Source: a virus
Lineage: Duplodnaviria > Caudoviricetes
IMG/VR virus record: IMGVR_UViG_3300022178_000674
Coordinates: 1 to 33,924 of that record
DNA length: 33,924 nucleotides
Strand: one strand, 5' to 3'
Shown: positions 5,915 through 31,539 of the stretch, piece by piece
Position numbering within the stretch: the first letter of the stretch is position 1
Layout of the letters: each line of letters begins with the position of its first letter
The notes under the pieces: model-generated
What the model saw: only the letters and a program-made list of their open reading frames with translations
Databases searched by the model: none
What the model was told of the DNA's origin: nothing
Program-made: the position numbers and the translations under genes

Positions 5915-6262
5915 ATGGCTATTGAAGACGATACTATGTGTATGCACTACACACTCGAAAGGCTTAGTGACATCAAGACTGAGACTGATTTGAATAAGTT
6001 TAAGGACGAGATTAAGCACAATCTTGGTGTCAATGAGCAATGGCGCAGGGATAACCCTGCGTACCTTGATCTATTAGCTCAAGATGACTTTGATGTTCTG
6101 AGGGCTGTTAGAACGACTAAGGACAAATACATTCGTAGAGCCTTAGAGAAGTCAAAGAACGTGAGTTCTGCTTCTAAATTATTAGGGTTGAAAAATTATC
6201 AAACCCTGCAAAACTGGATGAGAGAGTTAGGTATTGAAGATGATAATAACATTCGAAAATAA
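5915..6262 (+). CDS. Fis-type HTH DNA-binding protein
   Basis: YIRRALEKSKNVSSASKLLGLKNYQTLQNWMRELGI resembles the Fis/HTH_8 helix-turn-helix. Confidence 0.75.
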   Translation: MAIEDDTMCMHYTLERLSDIKTETDLNKFKDEIKHNLGVNEQWRRDNPAYLDLLAQDDFDVLRAVRTTKDKYIRRALEKSKNVSSASKLLGLKNYQTLQNWMRELGIEDDNNIRK

Positions 6263-6473
6263 GAAAGACAGGCCGAGCTTAAAAAAAGCTCAAGAGCTTG
6301 TCGGTGGTTTAGTCGAAATGGTTCACTTGCCACATAGACCAGAATTGCAAGTTCTTGTTAACGAAGAGGGGCTTTTAAAAGATTTGCCCCTTAATGTGGC
6401 GGCATCAAAGCTATGTATGCAGCCTATCGTTGGGGACGTTGTGGTTTTAAAAGGAGAAGCCCAATGGGACTAA
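6240..6473 (+). CDS. DUF3846-like protein
   Basis: L..AQELVGGLVEMV...VNEEGLLKDLPLN..AS...IVGDVVV. Confidence 0.75.
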   Translation: MIITFENKKDRPSLKKAQELVGGLVEMVHLPHRPELQVLVNEEGLLKDLPLNVAASKLCMQPIVGDVVVLKGEAQWD

Positions 6474-6697: not shown

Positions 6698-6924
6698 TTG
6701 AATACTTTACAGCGTTGGTTCTTTCTTACACATTGCATAACCATGAGATCGACACGATTGTTTGGTTCGAGAGTGAACAGCATTGCATGAAGGCCATGAG
6801 CAGCCGAACGTTTGATCATATGTATGATCATATGTACGAATTATATGGCAACGATATTTCTATGTGGTGCTTGCCTTCAGATGTTCAATCAAAATTAGTT
6901 AGGCCGCGAGTTCGGCCTAATTAA
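6694..6924 (+). CDS. Small protein with hydrophobic N-terminus and F-x-S-x-x-x-C...C motif
   Basis: ATGA overlap with the upstream gene. Confidence 0.7.
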   Translation: MIEYFTALVLSYTLHNHEIDTIVWFESEQHCMKAMSSRTFDHMYDHMYELYGNDISMWCLPSDVQSKLVRPRVRPN

Positions 6925-6926: not shown

Positions 6927-7233
6927 ATTTTGGCAGGTTGTATTTTTTTATAATATTCCGAACAAAAGTTTCGGTTGAAAACATTACTTCTGCAATTTTT
7001 GGTATTTTCATATTTCTGTTTAGAAAACTATTAACCATCTTTGCATTTTTAGATAGATTTTTAATCTCATCTTGTTTTTCGGCAAAAGTTTTTATTTTTA
7101 CTTGCCCCCGAAGATTTGGTCTTTCTGATACGTCCAATCTATTTTGAACGCACCAGTTTTTGCTGTAGAGATCTTCATATCTTATTCTAGCCGCTTCGCT
7201 TTGGTATATCTTACCTTTTACTTGAGCCTTCAT
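6925..7233 (-). CDS. Basic protein with possible C-terminal HTH, 102 aa
   Basis: TAATG coupling to the primase gene and SD GGAGG; MKIPKIAEVMFSTETFVRNIIKKY. Confidence 0.7.
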   Translation of the reverse strand: MKAQVKGKIYQSEAARIRYEDLYSKNWCVQNRLDVSERPNLRGQVKIKTFAEKQDEIKNLSKNAKMVNSFLNRNMKIPKIAEVMFSTETFVRNIIKKYNLPK

Positions 7234-9425
7234 TACTCACCTCCATTTATGATTGCTTGTTCTGCTTGATATAGATCACCGCCCACAACACCGAGAAACC
7301 TTCTCGATCCTTGATTTGTTCTTTTATATTTACCAATTCTACCTGCTTGCAACAAAGCTGTAACAGCTTTTTTAATTGTAGTTCTGCCATCATCCCTCAA
7401 GTTTGCAGCGTTTATATTTGTATCTGGAGTTGAGGAAATAGTGTCAAAGATACTATCTTGTCCATCATGCGTCATATAAATACCCGCCTGCTCTTGCAGA
7501 TCTATAAAATTAAACACATATTCTAATCTATTCCGAACAATTTCAGAACCAATGATGCTTCTAATATCCTCACTTCGATCTTCTAGCAGTCCATTGTTCG
7601 GGTTACGAATAAAATGTCTGATGTCCCGATTAGCAACACCGTTTGATTTTACGACTGCGCCATCAAAGACAGTGTTTCTTGTGTAACTAATTCCAAGATT
7701 TGTGCATCTTGTTCTAGCTACGCCCTCATCCACTTGCCAAACAGCAAATGCTGATCTAACCCCATCGACAATAGCTGACGTACCCCGAATAAGATTACGA
7801 GCCTGTTCTGGCGTTGTAACAGGATCTTTATCCCTGATTTTAGCCATGTGGTGATTAACCATAACTGTAGCGCCTGTTTCTGTAGCCATTTGAGCTAACA
7901 ATCCCATAAAAGCAGCGCCTGCTGCAGGATCTGCATTTACATCTGCGTGTACAAATGATGCCATAGGATCAATAACAATCAATGCCAGATCCTCGATCTC
8001 CAACATTTCCTCGTAAATCTTTTCAAACTCTGGAGATGTGACGTAGGTATTGTCGGCCTTCATCATAATTGGAAACACTCCGCCTTCGTTTGGAAGGGGC
8101 ACAACCAGCAAATCATGTCTATAACCCGAACGAGTGTTCATCTTATCCAGTCTGCTGACCCTGCGATGAAGCTCATCTCTGTCATCTTCTGCTGATAATA
8201 TAATGGCTGACCCGTGATGAGAGACTAAACCCCCGAAAGAATTTTGCATAGCTTCGCCCGATGCCACCTTCATAGCCAGATCTAATGTCATCATACCTTT
8301 ACCGCTATCTCCAGCAGCCGCGAAAACACATGGAACTCCCAGCGGTATGGTATCTCCAATTAGAAATTTTTGTTCGGGTGCAGCGCCAACGAATTGATTT
8401 TCAATAAGAAGGTTTCTATTTTTGAGAGATAATGTTCTCTTTACTTTATGATTTGGTGCGTTGAGAAACTTCGATATATCAAAAGCTTCTTCAATCGCAT
8501 CAGCAGCGTCCCACTTTTTTGGCTTACCCTGTGGTGGCGTAAGCATCGTAACGGCTTTTGCCCCTGCGTTAACACCAAGCTCTTGCACTATTTTGGCTAA
8601 TTTCTGACCCGCTTCATCGTTATCAGGCCATATAATAAGCTCTTTGCCGTGCAATGGAGAGAAATCAAACTTATCTTTTGTGCGCTGAGATAGCATCCCT
8701 GCGCCCCCGATAGTACAAGTTGCTGTATGCCCAAGCTTAATTAGTTCATCAGCACACTTTTCGCCCTCTACCCATATGACCCGATCTGCTTCTTTGATCT
8801 GCGGTAGGTTATATAACGGCCTAGTTTCTGGTAAACGTGGGAACTGACGAAACTCTTTTTTTGCGCTGCCGTCATTATCCCGAACAATTTCACCAGTTTG
8901 ATCTCGTTCGATGTATTTCCTGACCGCAACGATAATTTCACCGTCTTCTGACAGGTATAAATACTCTCCATCGTATGGCGTTGAGTAGTCGATAACCCGC
9001 TTTTGTTTAACTTGTTCGGGTTGTTGTTCCTGCTGCGGCTGGGCAAGTGCAGGATTTATTGGATTCATGGGTGGTTCTGTCTTTTGTTTTTCCAACCATG
9101 TGCCAAAATGTTCGGCTACATCTTTAATTTTCCAACCATATGCCGCCATCAGGATTTTAGTTATGCCCCCGATGCCATCACCTGTGTTAAAGTCCATGCC
9201 TCGCATGAACTCTGAGCTAGATGGATCTATATTTATCTTGAGAGATTGACCCGCTTCGCCATTCAAAGACCCCAGATAAAACTCATTCCGAACAACTCTT
9301 CCGTTTGGATAAGCATTTTTTAAAGCCTCTATTTGCACATAAGACGGAACTTTATCCGTTATCTCTGCGACTAAATCTCTCGGTTCACTACCATATCTTG
9401 TGTTGCCAATTACCCTTAATGACAT
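7233..9425 (-). CDS. TOPRIM primase fused to an AAA_25/RepA-like helicase, 730 aa
   Basis: TOPRIM motifs IWVEGEKCAD and WPDNDEAG; P-loop AAGDSGKG; Walker B IVIDP; VNHHMAK and IRGTSAIVDGVR motifs. Confidence 0.9.
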   Translation of the reverse strand: MSLRVIGNTRYGSEPRDLVAEITDKVPSYVQIEALKNAYPNGRVVRNEFYLGSLNGEAGQSLKINIDPSSSEFMRGMDFNTGDGIGGITKILMAAYGWKIKDVAEHFGTWLEKQKTEPPMNPINPALAQPQQEQQPEQVKQKRVIDYSTPYDGEYLYLSEDGEIIVAVRKYIERDQTGEIVRDNDGSAKKEFRQFPRLPETRPLYNLPQIKEADRVIWVEGEKCADELIKLGHTATCTIGGAGMLSQRTKDKFDFSPLHGKELIIWPDNDEAGQKLAKIVQELGVNAGAKAVTMLTPPQGKPKKWDAADAIEEAFDISKFLNAPNHKVKRTLSLKNRNLLIENQFVGAAPEQKFLIGDTIPLGVPCVFAAAGDSGKGMMTLDLAMKVASGEAMQNSFGGLVSHHGSAIILSAEDDRDELHRRVSRLDKMNTRSGYRHDLLVVPLPNEGGVFPIMMKADNTYVTSPEFEKIYEEMLEIEDLALIVIDPMASFVHADVNADPAAGAAFMGLLAQMATETGATVMVNHHMAKIRDKDPVTTPEQARNLIRGTSAIVDGVRSAFAVWQVDEGVARTRCTNLGISYTRNTVFDGAVVKSNGVANRDIRHFIRNPNNGLLEDRSEDIRSIIGSEIVRNRLEYVFNFIDLQEQAGIYMTHDGQDSIFDTISSTPDTNINAANLRDDGRTTIKKAVTALLQAGRIGKYKRTNQGSRRFLGVVGGDLYQAEQAIINGGE

Positions 9426-9431
9426 TATATT
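9403..9431 (+). promoter_or_regulatory. Antisense promoter overlapping the primase start codon
   Basis: TTGCCA-N17-TATATT. Confidence 0.55.
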
Positions 9432-9445
9432 GTCCTTATATACAT
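9425..9445 (-). CDS. Putative 6-aa leader peptide MYIRTI coupled to the primase gene
   Basis: SD GAGGT 4 nt upstream of ATG at 9445; its TAA overlaps the primase ATG (TAATG). Confidence 0.45.
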   Translation of the reverse strand: MYIRTI

Positions 9446-9500
9446 ATTTACCTCTTCGGGGGGTAGATCATAGTCCTTTTGCCTATCCCCCGCTTTTTTT
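9438..9500 (+). ncRNA. Candidate ~60-nt antisense (counter-transcribed) RNA
   Basis: Lies between a plus-strand promoter and a plus-strand terminator (CGGGGGGTAG/CTATCCCCCG plus T-tract) inside a minus-strand operon. Confidence 0.55.
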
Positions 9501-10281
9501 AATTATTCCAACAAGTCTCCCTAAACTCGCAAAACTTACAAAGAAAAAAATCTTTTGTTTGAGCTATGCGAGGTAGAATGTCACCTGCTTTAGCCGCAGT
9601 CAAGATATTTACAGCCTTGTCACTTGACGTCTGTGCTAACTCCCGATTGAACGGCACTAATTCGTAGTAAATCTCAGATGTGTTCTTATTTACCACTGTA
9701 AAGAGCGCAGGGTGTTCTGTAAGATCCATGTAGGCTTGATATAAAGCGATCTGAGTAGCGTAAACAGGATTTGCCTTGGCTACCCCCATGCGCTGAAAGC
9801 CTTTCCACTTTTGATCGTTCGCTGACTTGTTTTCCCACAGACATGGATAGCCCATATCCACGTCACCGTCACAGACCACACCATCAATGTGCCCTTTAAT
9901 TTCATCATCGGCTATAGAAAAGCCAAACTGTTTTCCCATCTTATCCTCTGTTCTCAGATCGAACCCTGCATCGCGTAGCCACATTGCAGCGTAGTCTTCG
10001 ATGTAATGACCGAACTCGAATATCCTGAGTGTTCTTGCACTGAAGCCCGAACCCTCGTCTTGTGGATAGTTTAAGTACCGATACTGTATCTTTCGACTGC
10101 ATTCGTCACCTATGCTTGAAGCTCCCAAATATTTTCTTCGTTCGCGTTTGCTATTCTTTTCTACGATAGCTTTGTCTACTGCTTGCGATATTGCCTCTGC
10201 TTGTGGATCAGAAGGGGATACTTGTAGTAGGCCAAGCGCCTGTTGACTTATAGTATTTGTCTTCGAGTTTCCCAATTTCAA
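9499..10281 (-). CDS. Cas4-like / PD-(D/E)xK exonuclease with a four-Cys Fe-S cluster (start codon uncertain, TTG at 10281 or 10275)
   Basis: LGASSIGDECSRK, GHYIE, GHIDG, WENKS, QIALY and CKFCEFRETC motifs. Confidence 0.85.
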   Translation of the reverse strand: MKLGNSKTNTISQQALGLLQVSPSDPQAEAISQAVDKAIVEKNSKRERRKYLGASSIGDECSRKIQYRYLNYPQDEGSGFSARTLRIFEFGHYIEDYAAMWLRDAGFDLRTEDKMGKQFGFSIADDEIKGHIDGVVCDGDVDMGYPCLWENKSANDQKWKGFQRMGVAKANPVYATQIALYQAYMDLTEHPALFTVVNKNTSEIYYELVPFNRELAQTSSDKAVNILTAAKAGDILPRIAQTKDFFLCKFCEFRETCWNN

Positions 10282-14551: not shown

Positions 14552-14580
14552 ATTATGACAAAGTATGGGATGAAAGTCAA
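14552..14580 (-). promoter_or_regulatory. Sigma70-type promoter P5 of the replication operon
   Basis: TTGACT-N17-CATAAT with TGn extension; spacer contains TCCCATA. Confidence 0.75.
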
Positions 14581-14951
14581 GGAATTTTTTTAGATAAATA
14601 TATATCTATATCAAAAACAGCTTTCATCAGCTTCTTTTTTAGTTTAAATTCAGGGGTTTCTACACCTTTGGCATCTTCGACAATATGCTCCCATATGCCA
14701 TCTGCGTTCTCTTTATTATATTTAAAGTCGGCTATATATGCACAGATCTTTTGATCGTTTACCATGATATTGTAACGAGGCTGTAGCTCTAAATCTTTGA
14801 TTCGTTCTGCCTTTTCAAGAGACTTCAAATAGAGGTAACGTTCTGATTCCCATTTAGAGTCAAATGTAATTCCATGTACGGTGGTTTTCTTATTACCATA
14901 CTTTGGTCTTGACCTTTTTAACTTGGGATTATATCTTGGTTTCAAGTACAT
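14577..14951 (-). CDS. DUF1064 family PD-(D/E)xK nuclease (putative junction resolvase)
   Basis: KYGNKKT..GITFDSKWESERY, LELQPRY, YIADFKY and VEDAKG motifs. Confidence 0.85.
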   Translation of the reverse strand: MYLKPRYNPKLKRSRPKYGNKKTTVHGITFDSKWESERYLYLKSLEKAERIKDLELQPRYNIMVNDQKICAYIADFKYNKENADGIWEHIVEDAKGVETPEFKLKKKLMKAVFDIDIYLSKKIP

Positions 14952-14990
14952 TATGGGAGTTATGCTAGTGCCTGCAACTACTAAATACAA
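14909..14990. promoter_or_regulatory. Face-to-face promoter pair for the RHH and DUF1064 genes
   Basis: Plus strand TTGACC-N17-TATCTT (14909-14937); minus strand TTGTAT-N17-TAGCAT (14990-14962); TATGGGA between them (14952-14958). Confidence 0.5.
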
Positions 14991-15174
14991 GTCTATAAGC
15001 GTTTCTGTGGAAACTTATAAGAAAATAGTTCAGATGTCGCAAAAAAAACGTAGGAATATTTCGCAACAACTTTCTTTGATTGTTGACGATGCTTACGACA
15101 AACAGGGCTTTATACCGCCTCACGAACCGATACGATCTGTTTCTGGCGGACTAAGCGCCGTCATAGAAGACTAA
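14968..15174 (+). CDS. Ribbon-helix-helix (CopG/Arc-like) transcriptional regulator (start GTG at 14968 or ATG at 14962)
   Basis: YKSISVSVETYKKIVQMSQKKRRNISQQLSLIV fits a strand-helix-helix pattern; SD GGGAG. Confidence 0.7.
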   Translation: MPATTKYKSISVSVETYKKIVQMSQKKRRNISQQLSLIVDDAYDKQGFIPPHEPIRSVSGGLSAVIED

Positions 15175-30432: not shown

Positions 30433-31539
30433 TTATAACTCCGAACTAAAGTTCATAAATGCAGTATTTGGGTTAGTACCAGAAAAAGGCTCTAGCCAAA
30501 ACGCATCTCCTGCACTTACACTTGTAGCAGTTCCAGAAATTAAAACCGACCTTGGACTTGCCCTTTGCAATCCACCAAATCCACTAGGTAACTCTTCATT
30601 GTTATTGTTTCTTGTTGCCCAAGAACCTCCTGCTGACATTGTTGGCGTAGCTCTCATAGTAACAGGAAAGTAAACAGTTCCAAAAAATGCGTTAGCGCCA
30701 TAAGAACAGCAAGTAATACCTGTTTCATTTCCACCGGTTGCTAATCCCGCTTCTTGAAGTAAATAGTAATACCTCTGACACCGTGCAAGCTCCTCACCAA
30801 ATGACCGATGCTCAAAGGGCGTGGCTTCTGAGCCTACTTCTAGCTGGACTCCTGTGATTTCCCAATCATTACTTGTGCTATCTGCAAAATTTACTTGACC
30901 AGTTGTACTACCTGCATCAGCAGCAGCTTGCCAAGCAGTATATAAAGTTCCAGTGTTTGTGTCTGCTCCAGCGTATAAATTAAAAAATATTTCTAAAGAC
31001 TTGTTATTATCATCATCTAATTTACCAGATGCATCTGCTGGAAAAGTTATACTGTACCTATTCCAATTTGTATTCGCAACTGTATAAGAACCGTTAACTT
31101 TTCTGGTATTATCTCTATCAAGAACTGTTACAGTATACAGACCTGTTTTGTTTGTTTTAACATAAAAAGATAAAGTTGTCGGTACAGCATCAGAACCATG
31201 TCCTTTTTTAAGTCTTTGGCAATCTTGACCCTCCGCAAAATAAGAAACATATCCTTGTTCGTTAGAAGCAAGAGAAGTATCTGCTGTTGTGCAATCTACT
31301 TTTAAAGCGTTAGCAAAACCCTCTAAATCTGTTACACTTGATTGTGTAATGGTAAAAGCTGCACCAGTATTTTGTTTATACATTTGAAATCTATCTAAAG
31401 TATAAACATTGCCAACACTAGCAAACGAGGTTCCTCTTTGCGCCACTTGCATAGCACCGTTGATTATGATGTTCCTGTTCGACAAGGCAGCGTCATTGTA
31501 AGCACCACCTAGTTCAGCTAGTTCTCGTGCCTTGCTCAT
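30433..31539 (-). CDS. Tail fibre / receptor-binding protein, 368 aa (paralog of 26934-28058)
   Basis: Same NRNIIING, TLSFYVK, GVQLEVG..FEHR and NFS.EL motifs. Confidence 0.7.
   Translation of the reverse strand: MSKARELAELGGAYNDAALSNRNIIINGAMQVAQRGTSFASVGNVYTLDRFQMYKQNTGAAFTITQSSVTDLEGFANALKVDCTTADTSLASNEQGYVSYFAEGQDCQRLKKGHGSDAVPTTLSFYVKTNKTGLYTVTVLDRDNTRKVNGSYTVANTNWNRYSITFPADASGKLDDDNNKSLEIFFNLYAGADTNTGTLYTAWQAAADAGSTTGQVNFADSTSNDWEITGVQLEVGSEATPFEHRSFGEELARCQRYYYLLQEAGLATGGNETGITCCSYGANAFFGTVYFPVTMRATPTMSAGGSWATRNNNNEELPSGFGGLQRASPRSVLISGTATSVSAGDAFWLEPFSGTNPNTAFMNFSSEL

Follow-up and report, generated by a model that had tools for sequence, protein, structure and literature searches.

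Plasmids classically govern their copy number by placing a replication protein under antisense control. In plasmid pMV158, for example, a 48-nucleotide (nt) RNA called RNAII is transcribed from a promoter inside repB, has a 17-nt tail and a terminator hairpin, pairs with the message immediately before the translation signals, and blocks translation (PMC4485353, PMC5703833; here and below, papers are cited for the available parts of their text). In phage lambda, the antisense promoter pO sits over the start codon of O, a replication gene (PMC5869508). Here, we describe a unit that resembles each of these in part. It lies in a marine phage fragment of 33.9 kb (IMG/VR record IMGVR_UViG_3300022178_000674, 33,924 nt, 59% complete by CheckV; this whole stretch is called the window below), where it precedes a gene encoding a 730-residue primase-helicase. 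Comparison with related sequences makes it very probable that the unit is an antisense RNA gene carried on this primase-helicase throughout a phage family.

The predicted antisense unit and its conservation

In the window, 73 bases separate the primase-helicase gene from the gene for a Cas4-type exonuclease that precedes it in the replication operon. An original prediction, made from the window alone, had placed here, on the opposite strand, a counter-transcribed RNA of about 60 nt with its own promoter and intrinsic terminator. All of the sequence elements that it listed are present, and the tie between such an RNA gene and the primase-helicase is supported by conservation in relatives. The spacer between the -35 and -10 boxes of the promoter is 17 nt. 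With a start seven bases past the -10 box, at 9438, the RNA would consist of a free 5' tail and a single hairpin, whose stem in the window has one G-U pair and is followed by a C and then by seven Ts (9494-9500). Pairing between this RNA and the primase message would end one base upstream of the Shine-Dalgarno (SD) sequence of the primase, whose AAGGA core lies at 9437-9433 on the minus strand.

A first set of 272 loci gave 91 distinct upstream regions, and 89 after L076 (N bases) and L052 (a long A run) were dropped; loci with truncated upstream DNA were dropped as well. Here, 81 of the 89 have the hairpin, and all 81 of these have TAnnnT before the primase ATG and TTG 17 bases further, both on the opposite strand. 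Both boxes are found in none of the eight loci that lack the hairpin. In the final set, which comprises 136 distinct family loci with 48-100% primase identity, the pattern TTG-N3-N17-TAnnnT stands at this same opposite-strand place in 119. Every one of these has a hairpin of -12 kcal/mol or lower (106 wholly in the gap, 13 flagged as reaching into the end of the Cas4 gene), and the RNAs predicted from them are 51-113 nt long, with a median of 63. In the other 17, the gap has shrunk to 27-32 nt, or there is an ATGA overlap with the Cas4 gene. On the tree of the 89 loci, the promoter was lost twice, independently, in lineages nested among carriers.

The stem begins between -4 and +10 nt from the Cas4 stop codon in 96 of 102 loci. 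This spacing is kept even with a tail of about 70 nt, which implies that the gap is the RNA gene and little else. Tails of that length, giving an RNA of about 110 nt, are found in the variant represented by L482, L478, and L480, in which promoter and terminator stay at their anchor points.

Within the promoter, little is fixed. The -10 box occurs in seven hexamer forms that share only T-12, A-11, and T-7, and these bases, together with the TTG of the -35 box, are all that is invariant across loci. The -35 box lies, of course, inside a coding sequence. Codon 7 of the primase is for Gly, Ser, or Asp (GGC, AGC, or GAC), and its third base is always C; GGC accounts for 33% of the other Gly codons. 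The part of the primase that holds the -35 box, residues 1-13, is disordered in the structure model. Because amino acids change in this disordered N-terminus as the TTG stays, the antisense promoter is, to judge from these sequences, under selection at the level of the DNA.

Among 308 other gene starts in these loci, TAnnnT was found at 14, and both boxes at none. Promoter-like sites are not enriched between 6000 and 13000 of the window (13 found, 16.5 expected), and the antisense promoter scores best in that region (10/12). A scan with the promoter pattern alone found 119 loci, 56 of them distinct; 55 of these belong to this primase, all 55 with the hairpin, and the one remaining is a chance match without it. 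When promoter, free tail, hairpin, and U-tract are sought together over whole genomes, a single site is found, at the primase, in the window and in the relatives G001, G003, and G004. Among primases at 35-39% identity, the unit was found in none of 21 loci (six have a promoter-like site at another offset, one has a hairpin). Of 22 Wolbachia WO-type loci fetched, 10 were examined, and none of these 10 has it; three GenBank phages used as an outgroup lack it as well.

It might be argued that no RNA is made here at all. The hairpin would then serve the sense strand, as a processing or stability element or as a stop for read-through, and the boxes would reflect the spacing of the SD sequence and constraints from the protein. 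Hairpins of -12 kcal/mol or lower do arise by chance in a wider scan, where they are seen in nine of 10 near-identical loci from a clade that has lost the unit, inside the Cas4 gene. Such constraints fit poorly, however, with an alignment in which T-12, A-11, T-7, and TTG alone are invariant, and in which amino acids change as the TTG stays. The corresponding -10 box on the sense strand, TATAAT over the primase ATG, was rejected, as it fits only 47 of 81 loci. Further, the G-U pairs and U-tails of the hairpin point one way. The absence of an RNA thus seems very improbable.

A G-U pair is present in the hairpin in 77 of 81 loci. Stability favors the antisense strand in 75 of the 81 and the sense strand in four. 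At least five U residues follow it in 54 of 81 loci when it is read in antisense, and in none of the 81 when it is read in sense. In the window itself, folding of the plus strand has a z-score of -2.7 (one of 200 shuffles as good), versus -1.8 for the minus strand. As the original prediction had held for the G-U wobble and the U-tail, the terminator is, by these sequence features, one that works in the antisense direction only.

The stem covaries. In a clade of 25 sequences, which excludes the window, 92% of cells are paired (none of 500 shuffles as high), and five of 11 pairs change on both sides (37 of 500 shuffles as high for the number of pairs); RNAalifold predicts the same helix for this clade, and the tested structure was read off that alignment. 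Covariation was tested on one clade because the stems cannot be aligned across clades. An alignment of 27 RNAs from the whole family gives a consensus structure with no pairs. The tail has a mean unpaired probability of 0.87 and is 8% G in the 27 representatives.

The letters of the RNA, in turn, drift. In distant pairs of loci, they are near the level of shuffled sequence, while the promoter boxes are about 0.9 identical. This would be as expected for an antisense RNA acting in cis. No diversifying selection on the RNA is seen; at middle distances, four-fold sites are less conserved than the tail and the hairpin. The letters change too fast for sequence models: a covariance model of the 25-sequence sister clade does not match the copies in the window and G001. 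Rfam has no match to the window at its gathering threshold, and the one match in 9330-9600, with an E-value of 9.3, is by chance. In the window, the loop of the hairpin contains an anti-SD sequence; this is not a feature shared across clades.

Some of the genes are mosaics. The primases of L247, L030, L007, L011, and L254 are 84-86% identical overall and near that of the window in their first 330 residues (nearly identical in L011 and L254), and the RNA regions of all five are nearly identical to that of the window.

Table 1. Features of the window that bear on the antisense unit and on its possible partners.
Feature	Position	Strand	Remarks
Primase-helicase	7233..9425	-	730 residues; Toprim and RSF1010 RepA-like AAA_25 helicase; inferred target
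-35 box TTGCCA of antisense promoter	9403..9408	+	within primase codons 6-8; TTG in 81/81 hairpin loci
Mini-ORF (open reading frame) MYIRTI	9425..9445	-	present in window, not conserved, judged incidental
-10 box TATATT of antisense promoter	9426..9431	+	six bases just before primase ATG, opposite strand; TAnnnT in 81/81 hairpin loci
Primase SD AAGGA(C)	9432..9437	-	from sequence; directly beside first base of predicted RNA; variants of the SD across loci
Predicted antisense RNA, about 62 nt	9438..9499	+	start and end inferred; A at start position in 21/27 representatives
Single-stranded, G-poor 5' tail	9438..9456	+	complementary to message -13 to -31
Intrinsic terminator	9457..9500	+	stem 9457-9492, U-tract 9494-9500
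Cas4-type exonuclease	9499..10281	-	phrog_1990; stop codon adjoins terminator
Sense promoter-like site TTGACT-17-CATTCT	9575..9603	-	within Cas4 3' end; faces antisense promoter; would give primase a leader of about 143 nt
Replication-operon promoter TTGACT-17-CATAAT	14552..14580	-	TCCCATA motif in spacer; motif in 19/26 distinct relatives
Small ribbon-helix-helix (CopG/Arc-like) gene, candidate repressor	14968..15174	+	68 codons; promoter-like site 14909-14937

Predicted action on the primase-helicase message

In locus L122, a gene of 100 codons lies between the Cas4 gene and the unit. Because the unit stays with the primase here, where the upstream gene differs, the primase is the likely target. 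We favor, with moderate confidence, the view that the RNA of about 62 nt is a brake on the translation of the primase-helicase. Here, the sigma-70 polymerase of the host would transcribe the RNA from 9438, without the TCCCA operator carried by four other promoters of the phage. The free 5' tail would seed a duplex with the primase message that covers positions -13 to about -74. On a message, the footprint of the 30S subunit runs from roughly -20 to +15. The end of the duplex would touch the primase SD within this footprint, and the loading of ribosomes would be blocked; RNase III may then cut the duplex. The level of the RNA would rise with the copy number of phage DNA, giving negative feedback on a replication enzyme.

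Folding predictions bear on how such a block might work. The SD of the primase has a mean unpaired probability of 0.55, and excess folding between -12 and +70 of the primase message (z below -2) is predicted in none of 27 cases. Simulated binding of the RNA lowers the accessibility of the SD by more than 0.2 in none of 26 full leaders, induces no terminator, and creates no downstream structure. A conformational switch, either by sequestration of the SD or by an induced terminator, was rejected, being predicted neither in the folds nor in the simulated binding. Attenuation of the repABC type is likewise disfavored, because binding leaves the SD accessible and induces no terminator. With neither a switch nor attenuation predicted, direct blocking of ribosome loading remains. 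The YUNR motif occurs in six of 27 antisense loops and five of 27 sense loops, and no kissing-loop motif is conserved.

Several observations weigh against a translational brake. The target region of the message is predicted to be only about 0.55 unpaired; the duplex covers neither the SD nor the start codon itself; and the G-poor tail could merely mirror a purine-rich ribosome-binding region. The U-tail reaches at least five residues in 77 of the 119 promoter loci and is weak in some clades, and a strict genome-wide scan for the unit found none in the relative G002, where it is weak. The loci are, of course, kin, and their counts overstate independence; the independent part of the evidence is the two losses and the amino-acid changes. 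The link between repressor and operator that is discussed below was drawn from weak fold matches and a motif of 5-7 bases. Contigs of four RNA runs are unstranded and sparse, with none across 9458-9551, and are uninformative. Last, the effect of lambda pO on replication is attributed to interference between polymerases and not to the OOP RNA, which leaves the O-P message unchanged (PMC3985674).

Transcriptional interference may be imagined here as well. The antisense promoter, facing a sense promoter at 9603-9575 and the promoter of the operon, would damp transcription of the primase in cis; the RNA would be a by-product, and the terminator would merely shield the upstream genes. This is possible because a sense promoter-like site that faces the antisense promoter is conserved in the 3' end of the Cas4 gene. 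In the main clade, TTGAC is present in 100 of 100 loci and [CT]AnnnT in 99 of 100. The full pattern, TTGAC-18-[CT]AnnnT, is found in 99 of 100 main-clade carriers of the unit, 12 of 15 non-carriers, none of 23 loci in the clade at 48-52% identity, and one of 23 in the outgroup. For comparison, TTG makes up 20% of the other Leu codons. The site is, from its conservation, a candidate promoter with a weak -10 box, CATTCT. Interference would suit a unit in which the promoter is the most conserved part and the RNA letters drift, and lambda pO, in the same position but for a shift of 3 nt, damps pR in this way (PMC3985674). However, clades share the tail-plus-hairpin shape and an RNA start one base away from the SD, and in the clade at 48-52% identity the antisense unit persists although the sense promoter is absent. 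We consider interference unlikely, but not negligibly so.

Alternatively, cleavage of the duplex by RNase III might be the main action. Here, a cut in the operon message between Cas4 and primase would alter how stable one side is, as happens to cII under OOP. A perfect duplex of about 62 base pairs is possible, and OOP does act via RNase III (PMC3985674). In 106 of 119 loci, however, the RNA lies clear of the coding sequence upstream. Further, a change of upstream gene leaves the unit at the primase, and no cII-like gene is present. Cleavage as the principal mechanism is improbable.

The original prediction had offered a different explanation, in which the RNA blocks a translationally coupled leader peptide that the primase needs for its own start, following the logic of tap in R1 (CopA/tap/repA) and repY in ColIb-P9. 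The mini-ORF proposed for this peptide, ATG TAT ATA AGG ACA ATA TAA at 9445-9425 on the minus strand, does exist in the window. It has an SD, GAGGT, at 9454-9450, and its stop overlaps the primase ATG (9425) as TAATG. With a start at 9438, the RNA would cover the SD and ATG of the mini-ORF and stop short of the SD of the primase. The TAA overlaps the primase ATG in 80 of 81 loci, one subclade has ATG in the frame of the mini-ORF in 19 of 22 rows, and ATG, GTG, or TTG starts are somewhat commoner in this frame (62 of 81, versus 45 and 32 in the other frames).

The peptide, however, is not conserved. Among 21 relatives at 84% identity or more, 18 have AGG in place of its ATG. An ORF beginning with ATG is found in the frame in 36 of 119 promoter loci, with varying length; ATG with an SD-like motif is found in three of 81; and some loci (L142 and L225, for example) have in-frame stops. 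Thus, alignment of the region across relatives, as the original prediction had proposed, bears out the -35 and -10 boxes and the covariation of the stem, but not the SD and ATG of the mini-ORF. That prediction had also named the joint absence of mini-ORF and promoter from relatives as counting against it; most lack the mini-ORF, but the promoter is kept. The TAA overlap is forced by T-12 and A-11, being the -10 box read backwards, and the ATG at -14 comes from the AU start of the RNA together with the GAGG of the SD. Because the leader is not conserved, and because TAATG is a reversed -10 box, coupling of the R1/ColIb type is rejected; the primase has an open SD of its own, which is not predicted to be locked. 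Largely refuted, the leader model keeps scarcely any probability. The mini-ORF is likely, on these comparisons, to be incidental, although it may have occasional local use.

Finally, the RNA or its transcription might prime or activate a replication origin at the site, as was once proposed for OOP (PMC3985674). This is hardly credible, given that no iterons were found near the site, that the target encodes its own primase, and that the window has a repeat-rich non-coding region at another place (1110-1330). There, TTGACGT/ACGTCAA palindromes are clustered (seven of the 12 copies in the window) together with two copies of ATTGATTTTATT, which makes the region a candidate origin or packaging site. 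G001 and G003 have similar clusters, at about 31250-31380 and about 6180-6380, respectively, close to the small terminase gene.

A possible second layer, and the phages that carry the unit

The replication operon runs on the minus strand from a promoter at 14580-14552 through genes for Sak4, a phrog_2300 protein, a helicase, and the Cas4-type exonuclease to the primase-helicase, whose predicted fold resembles T7 gp4 with an RSF1010 RepA-like helicase domain. Transcription from this promoter is likely repressed, in addition, by a ribbon-helix-helix protein. Together with a translational brake, this would give the same two layers as CopG and RNAII in pMV158. The candidate gene is present in all 80 loci that were fetched with its neighbor. 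The structure model of its product has a predicted local distance difference test score (pLDDT) of 70; its fold matches are mostly to ribbon-helix-helix proteins and are all weak (E 0.07-2), with CopG matching at 1.3 Å over 41 residues, and the match to Pfam RHH_5 is below threshold. An invariant tail of the GLSAVIED type ends the protein.

A motif, TCCCA/TGGGA, lies in four promoters of the window (2540, 3620, 14580, and 14909), including the one before this gene and the one before the replication operon. It occurs in four of 16 promoter-like sites, where 0.05 would be expected in each, and does not occur in the antisense promoter. The protein and the motif are, from these patterns, likely a phage-wide repressor and its operator, and by analogy suggest the logic of CopG plus RNAII. 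A repressor and an antisense RNA are found together in phage P22 as well. The antisense RNA there is sar (PMC12197685), and the repressor is Arc. In L630, L633-L635, L640, L643, L645, and L666, a hairpin and other genes after a Holliday-junction resolvase gene replace the replication promoter, at a variable insertion site.

The original prediction had suggested that control of this kind might support a carrier or plasmid-like state. This is unsupported. Models for tyrosine integrases, resolvases, ParA-type proteins, and HTH_3 repressors match in none of four relatives that are at least 98% complete, while these models do match in 12-14 of 14 control genomes. In G003, a complete relative of 54.6 kb with terminal repeats, neither a DNA polymerase nor an integrase was found among 72 ORFs. 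The capsid protein of G003 is 73% identical to that of pelagiphage HTVC023P and 58% identical to those of roseophages CRP-901 and CRP-902. No cultured phage was found with the window primase at more than 60% identity. Three matches sit in bins of metagenome-assembled genomes (Rhodobacteraceae, Alphaproteobacteria, and Marinomonas). In one contig from such a genome, L083 (3992-6217), the primase frame is split into two ORFs. The record of G001 (L289-L292), in which two capsid genes and a portal of the SU10 type accompany the head module of the family, may be a chimera of two phages. In the window, a hairpin at 6899-6920, where two convergent blocks of genes meet, is likely a terminator.

It is possible to go further, and to suppose that a widespread marine phage family with neither an integrase nor a lysogeny repressor carries a complete copy-number controller of the plasmid type, an antisense RNA on the primase-helicase with a CopG-like repressor on the replication operon, that keeps its DNA copy number low in hosts that grow slowly and excludes only close relatives, as plasmid incompatibility groups do. 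Here, the restriction to close relatives would follow from RNA letters that differ between lineages. We regard this as quite doubtful.

What can be said is that the device is maintained throughout a family that looks lytic by gene content, and that two natural knock-out lineages serve as controls. This points to phages that hold back their own replication, and so touches on the persistence of marine phages in starved hosts. Because the unit is short and uses host sigma-70 signals, it can be tested by reporters without culture of the phage. No description of a phage antisense RNA on a primase or helicase was found in the literature, in a coverage largely without subscription papers, and the word "primase" does not occur in the available text of a 2025 review of small RNAs of phages (PMC12197685). 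Also new here are the conserved facing sense promoter-like site in the Cas4 gene and the CopG-like gene, whose likely operator lies at the promoter of the replication operon.

Comparison with known systems

ColIb-P9 has the arrangement Inc/repY/repZ. Like it and R1 CopA/tap/repA, the unit places an antisense RNA upstream of a replication gene; a counter-transcript on repA of R1162/RSF1010 may be a further parallel, for which the literature searched gave no confirmation. Unlike R1 and ColIb-P9, the unit here lacks a conserved leader peptide, a locked ribosome-binding site, and a conserved kissing-loop motif. R1 needs Tap because the ribosome-binding site of its repA is locked (PMC4393325). A second likeness is to the repABC/repC systems, where a counter-transcribed RNA of 55-59 nt lies in the gap before the replication gene (PMC3155836, PMC10194956). 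Here, however, RepA, RepB, and RepC are lacking. A ParA-type ATPase is found in none of four near-complete genomes, no RepC is found among the annotated ORFs of G001 and G003, no RNA-induced terminator of the kind described in PMC3155836 is predicted in the leader, and no match to Rfam is obtained.

A candidate structured RNA from marine phages, DNAVirus_4129, comes close by description: 66 nt, 30 sequences, upstream of Toprim/AAA_25/repA-like genes (PMC10690425). Compared by that description only, its genes carry Toprim_3 and Prim_Zn_Ribbon domains that the primase in the window does not match, and it is marked as having no terminator (PMC10690425). It is probably another family. The available text of that paper proposes no function for it, and antisense promoter motifs were not found in the available parts of four of its supplements.

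The position of the unit is that of lambda pO (NC_001416), which also straddles the start codon of a replication gene and gives a short self-terminating RNA. The -10 box of pO is at -3 to +3 and its -35 box at +21 to +26; here, they are at -6 to -1 and +18 to +23, a shift of 3 nt. OOP, the best-known phage RNA at this position, overlaps 52-55 nt of its target, the lysogeny regulator cII (PMC3985674, PMC3349717, PMC5869508), whereas the likely target here is the primase-helicase. The RNA here is mostly intergenic (hairpin in 106 of 119 loci), the upstream gene is the Cas4 exonuclease or an inserted gene and not cII, the relatives are without lysogeny genes, and there is no similarity to OOP in sequence.

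The anatomy of the unit is, in turn, that of pMV158 RNAII. In both, the promoter lies in the 5' end of the replication gene (here with its -35 box in codons 6-8, in 119 of 136 loci), and the RNA starts with a single-stranded 5' stretch (about 19 nt here, versus 17 nt in RNAII), followed by a single G-C-rich terminator hairpin with its U-tail, as indicated here by predicted structure and covariation. Pairing, which is predicted here, falls shortly before the translation signals in both, and a ribbon-helix-helix protein, a candidate one here, is encoded nearby. The differences are that the unit here serves a tailed phage and a primase-helicase like T7 gp4 and RSF1010 RepA, and not the rolling-circle Rep of a plasmid; that its candidate ribbon-helix-helix gene lies outside the operon, at a distance of 5.5 kb and on the opposite strand; and that its function is a predicted one. 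Thus, the unit matches pMV158 RNAII in anatomy and lambda pO/OOP in position, and is a member of neither.

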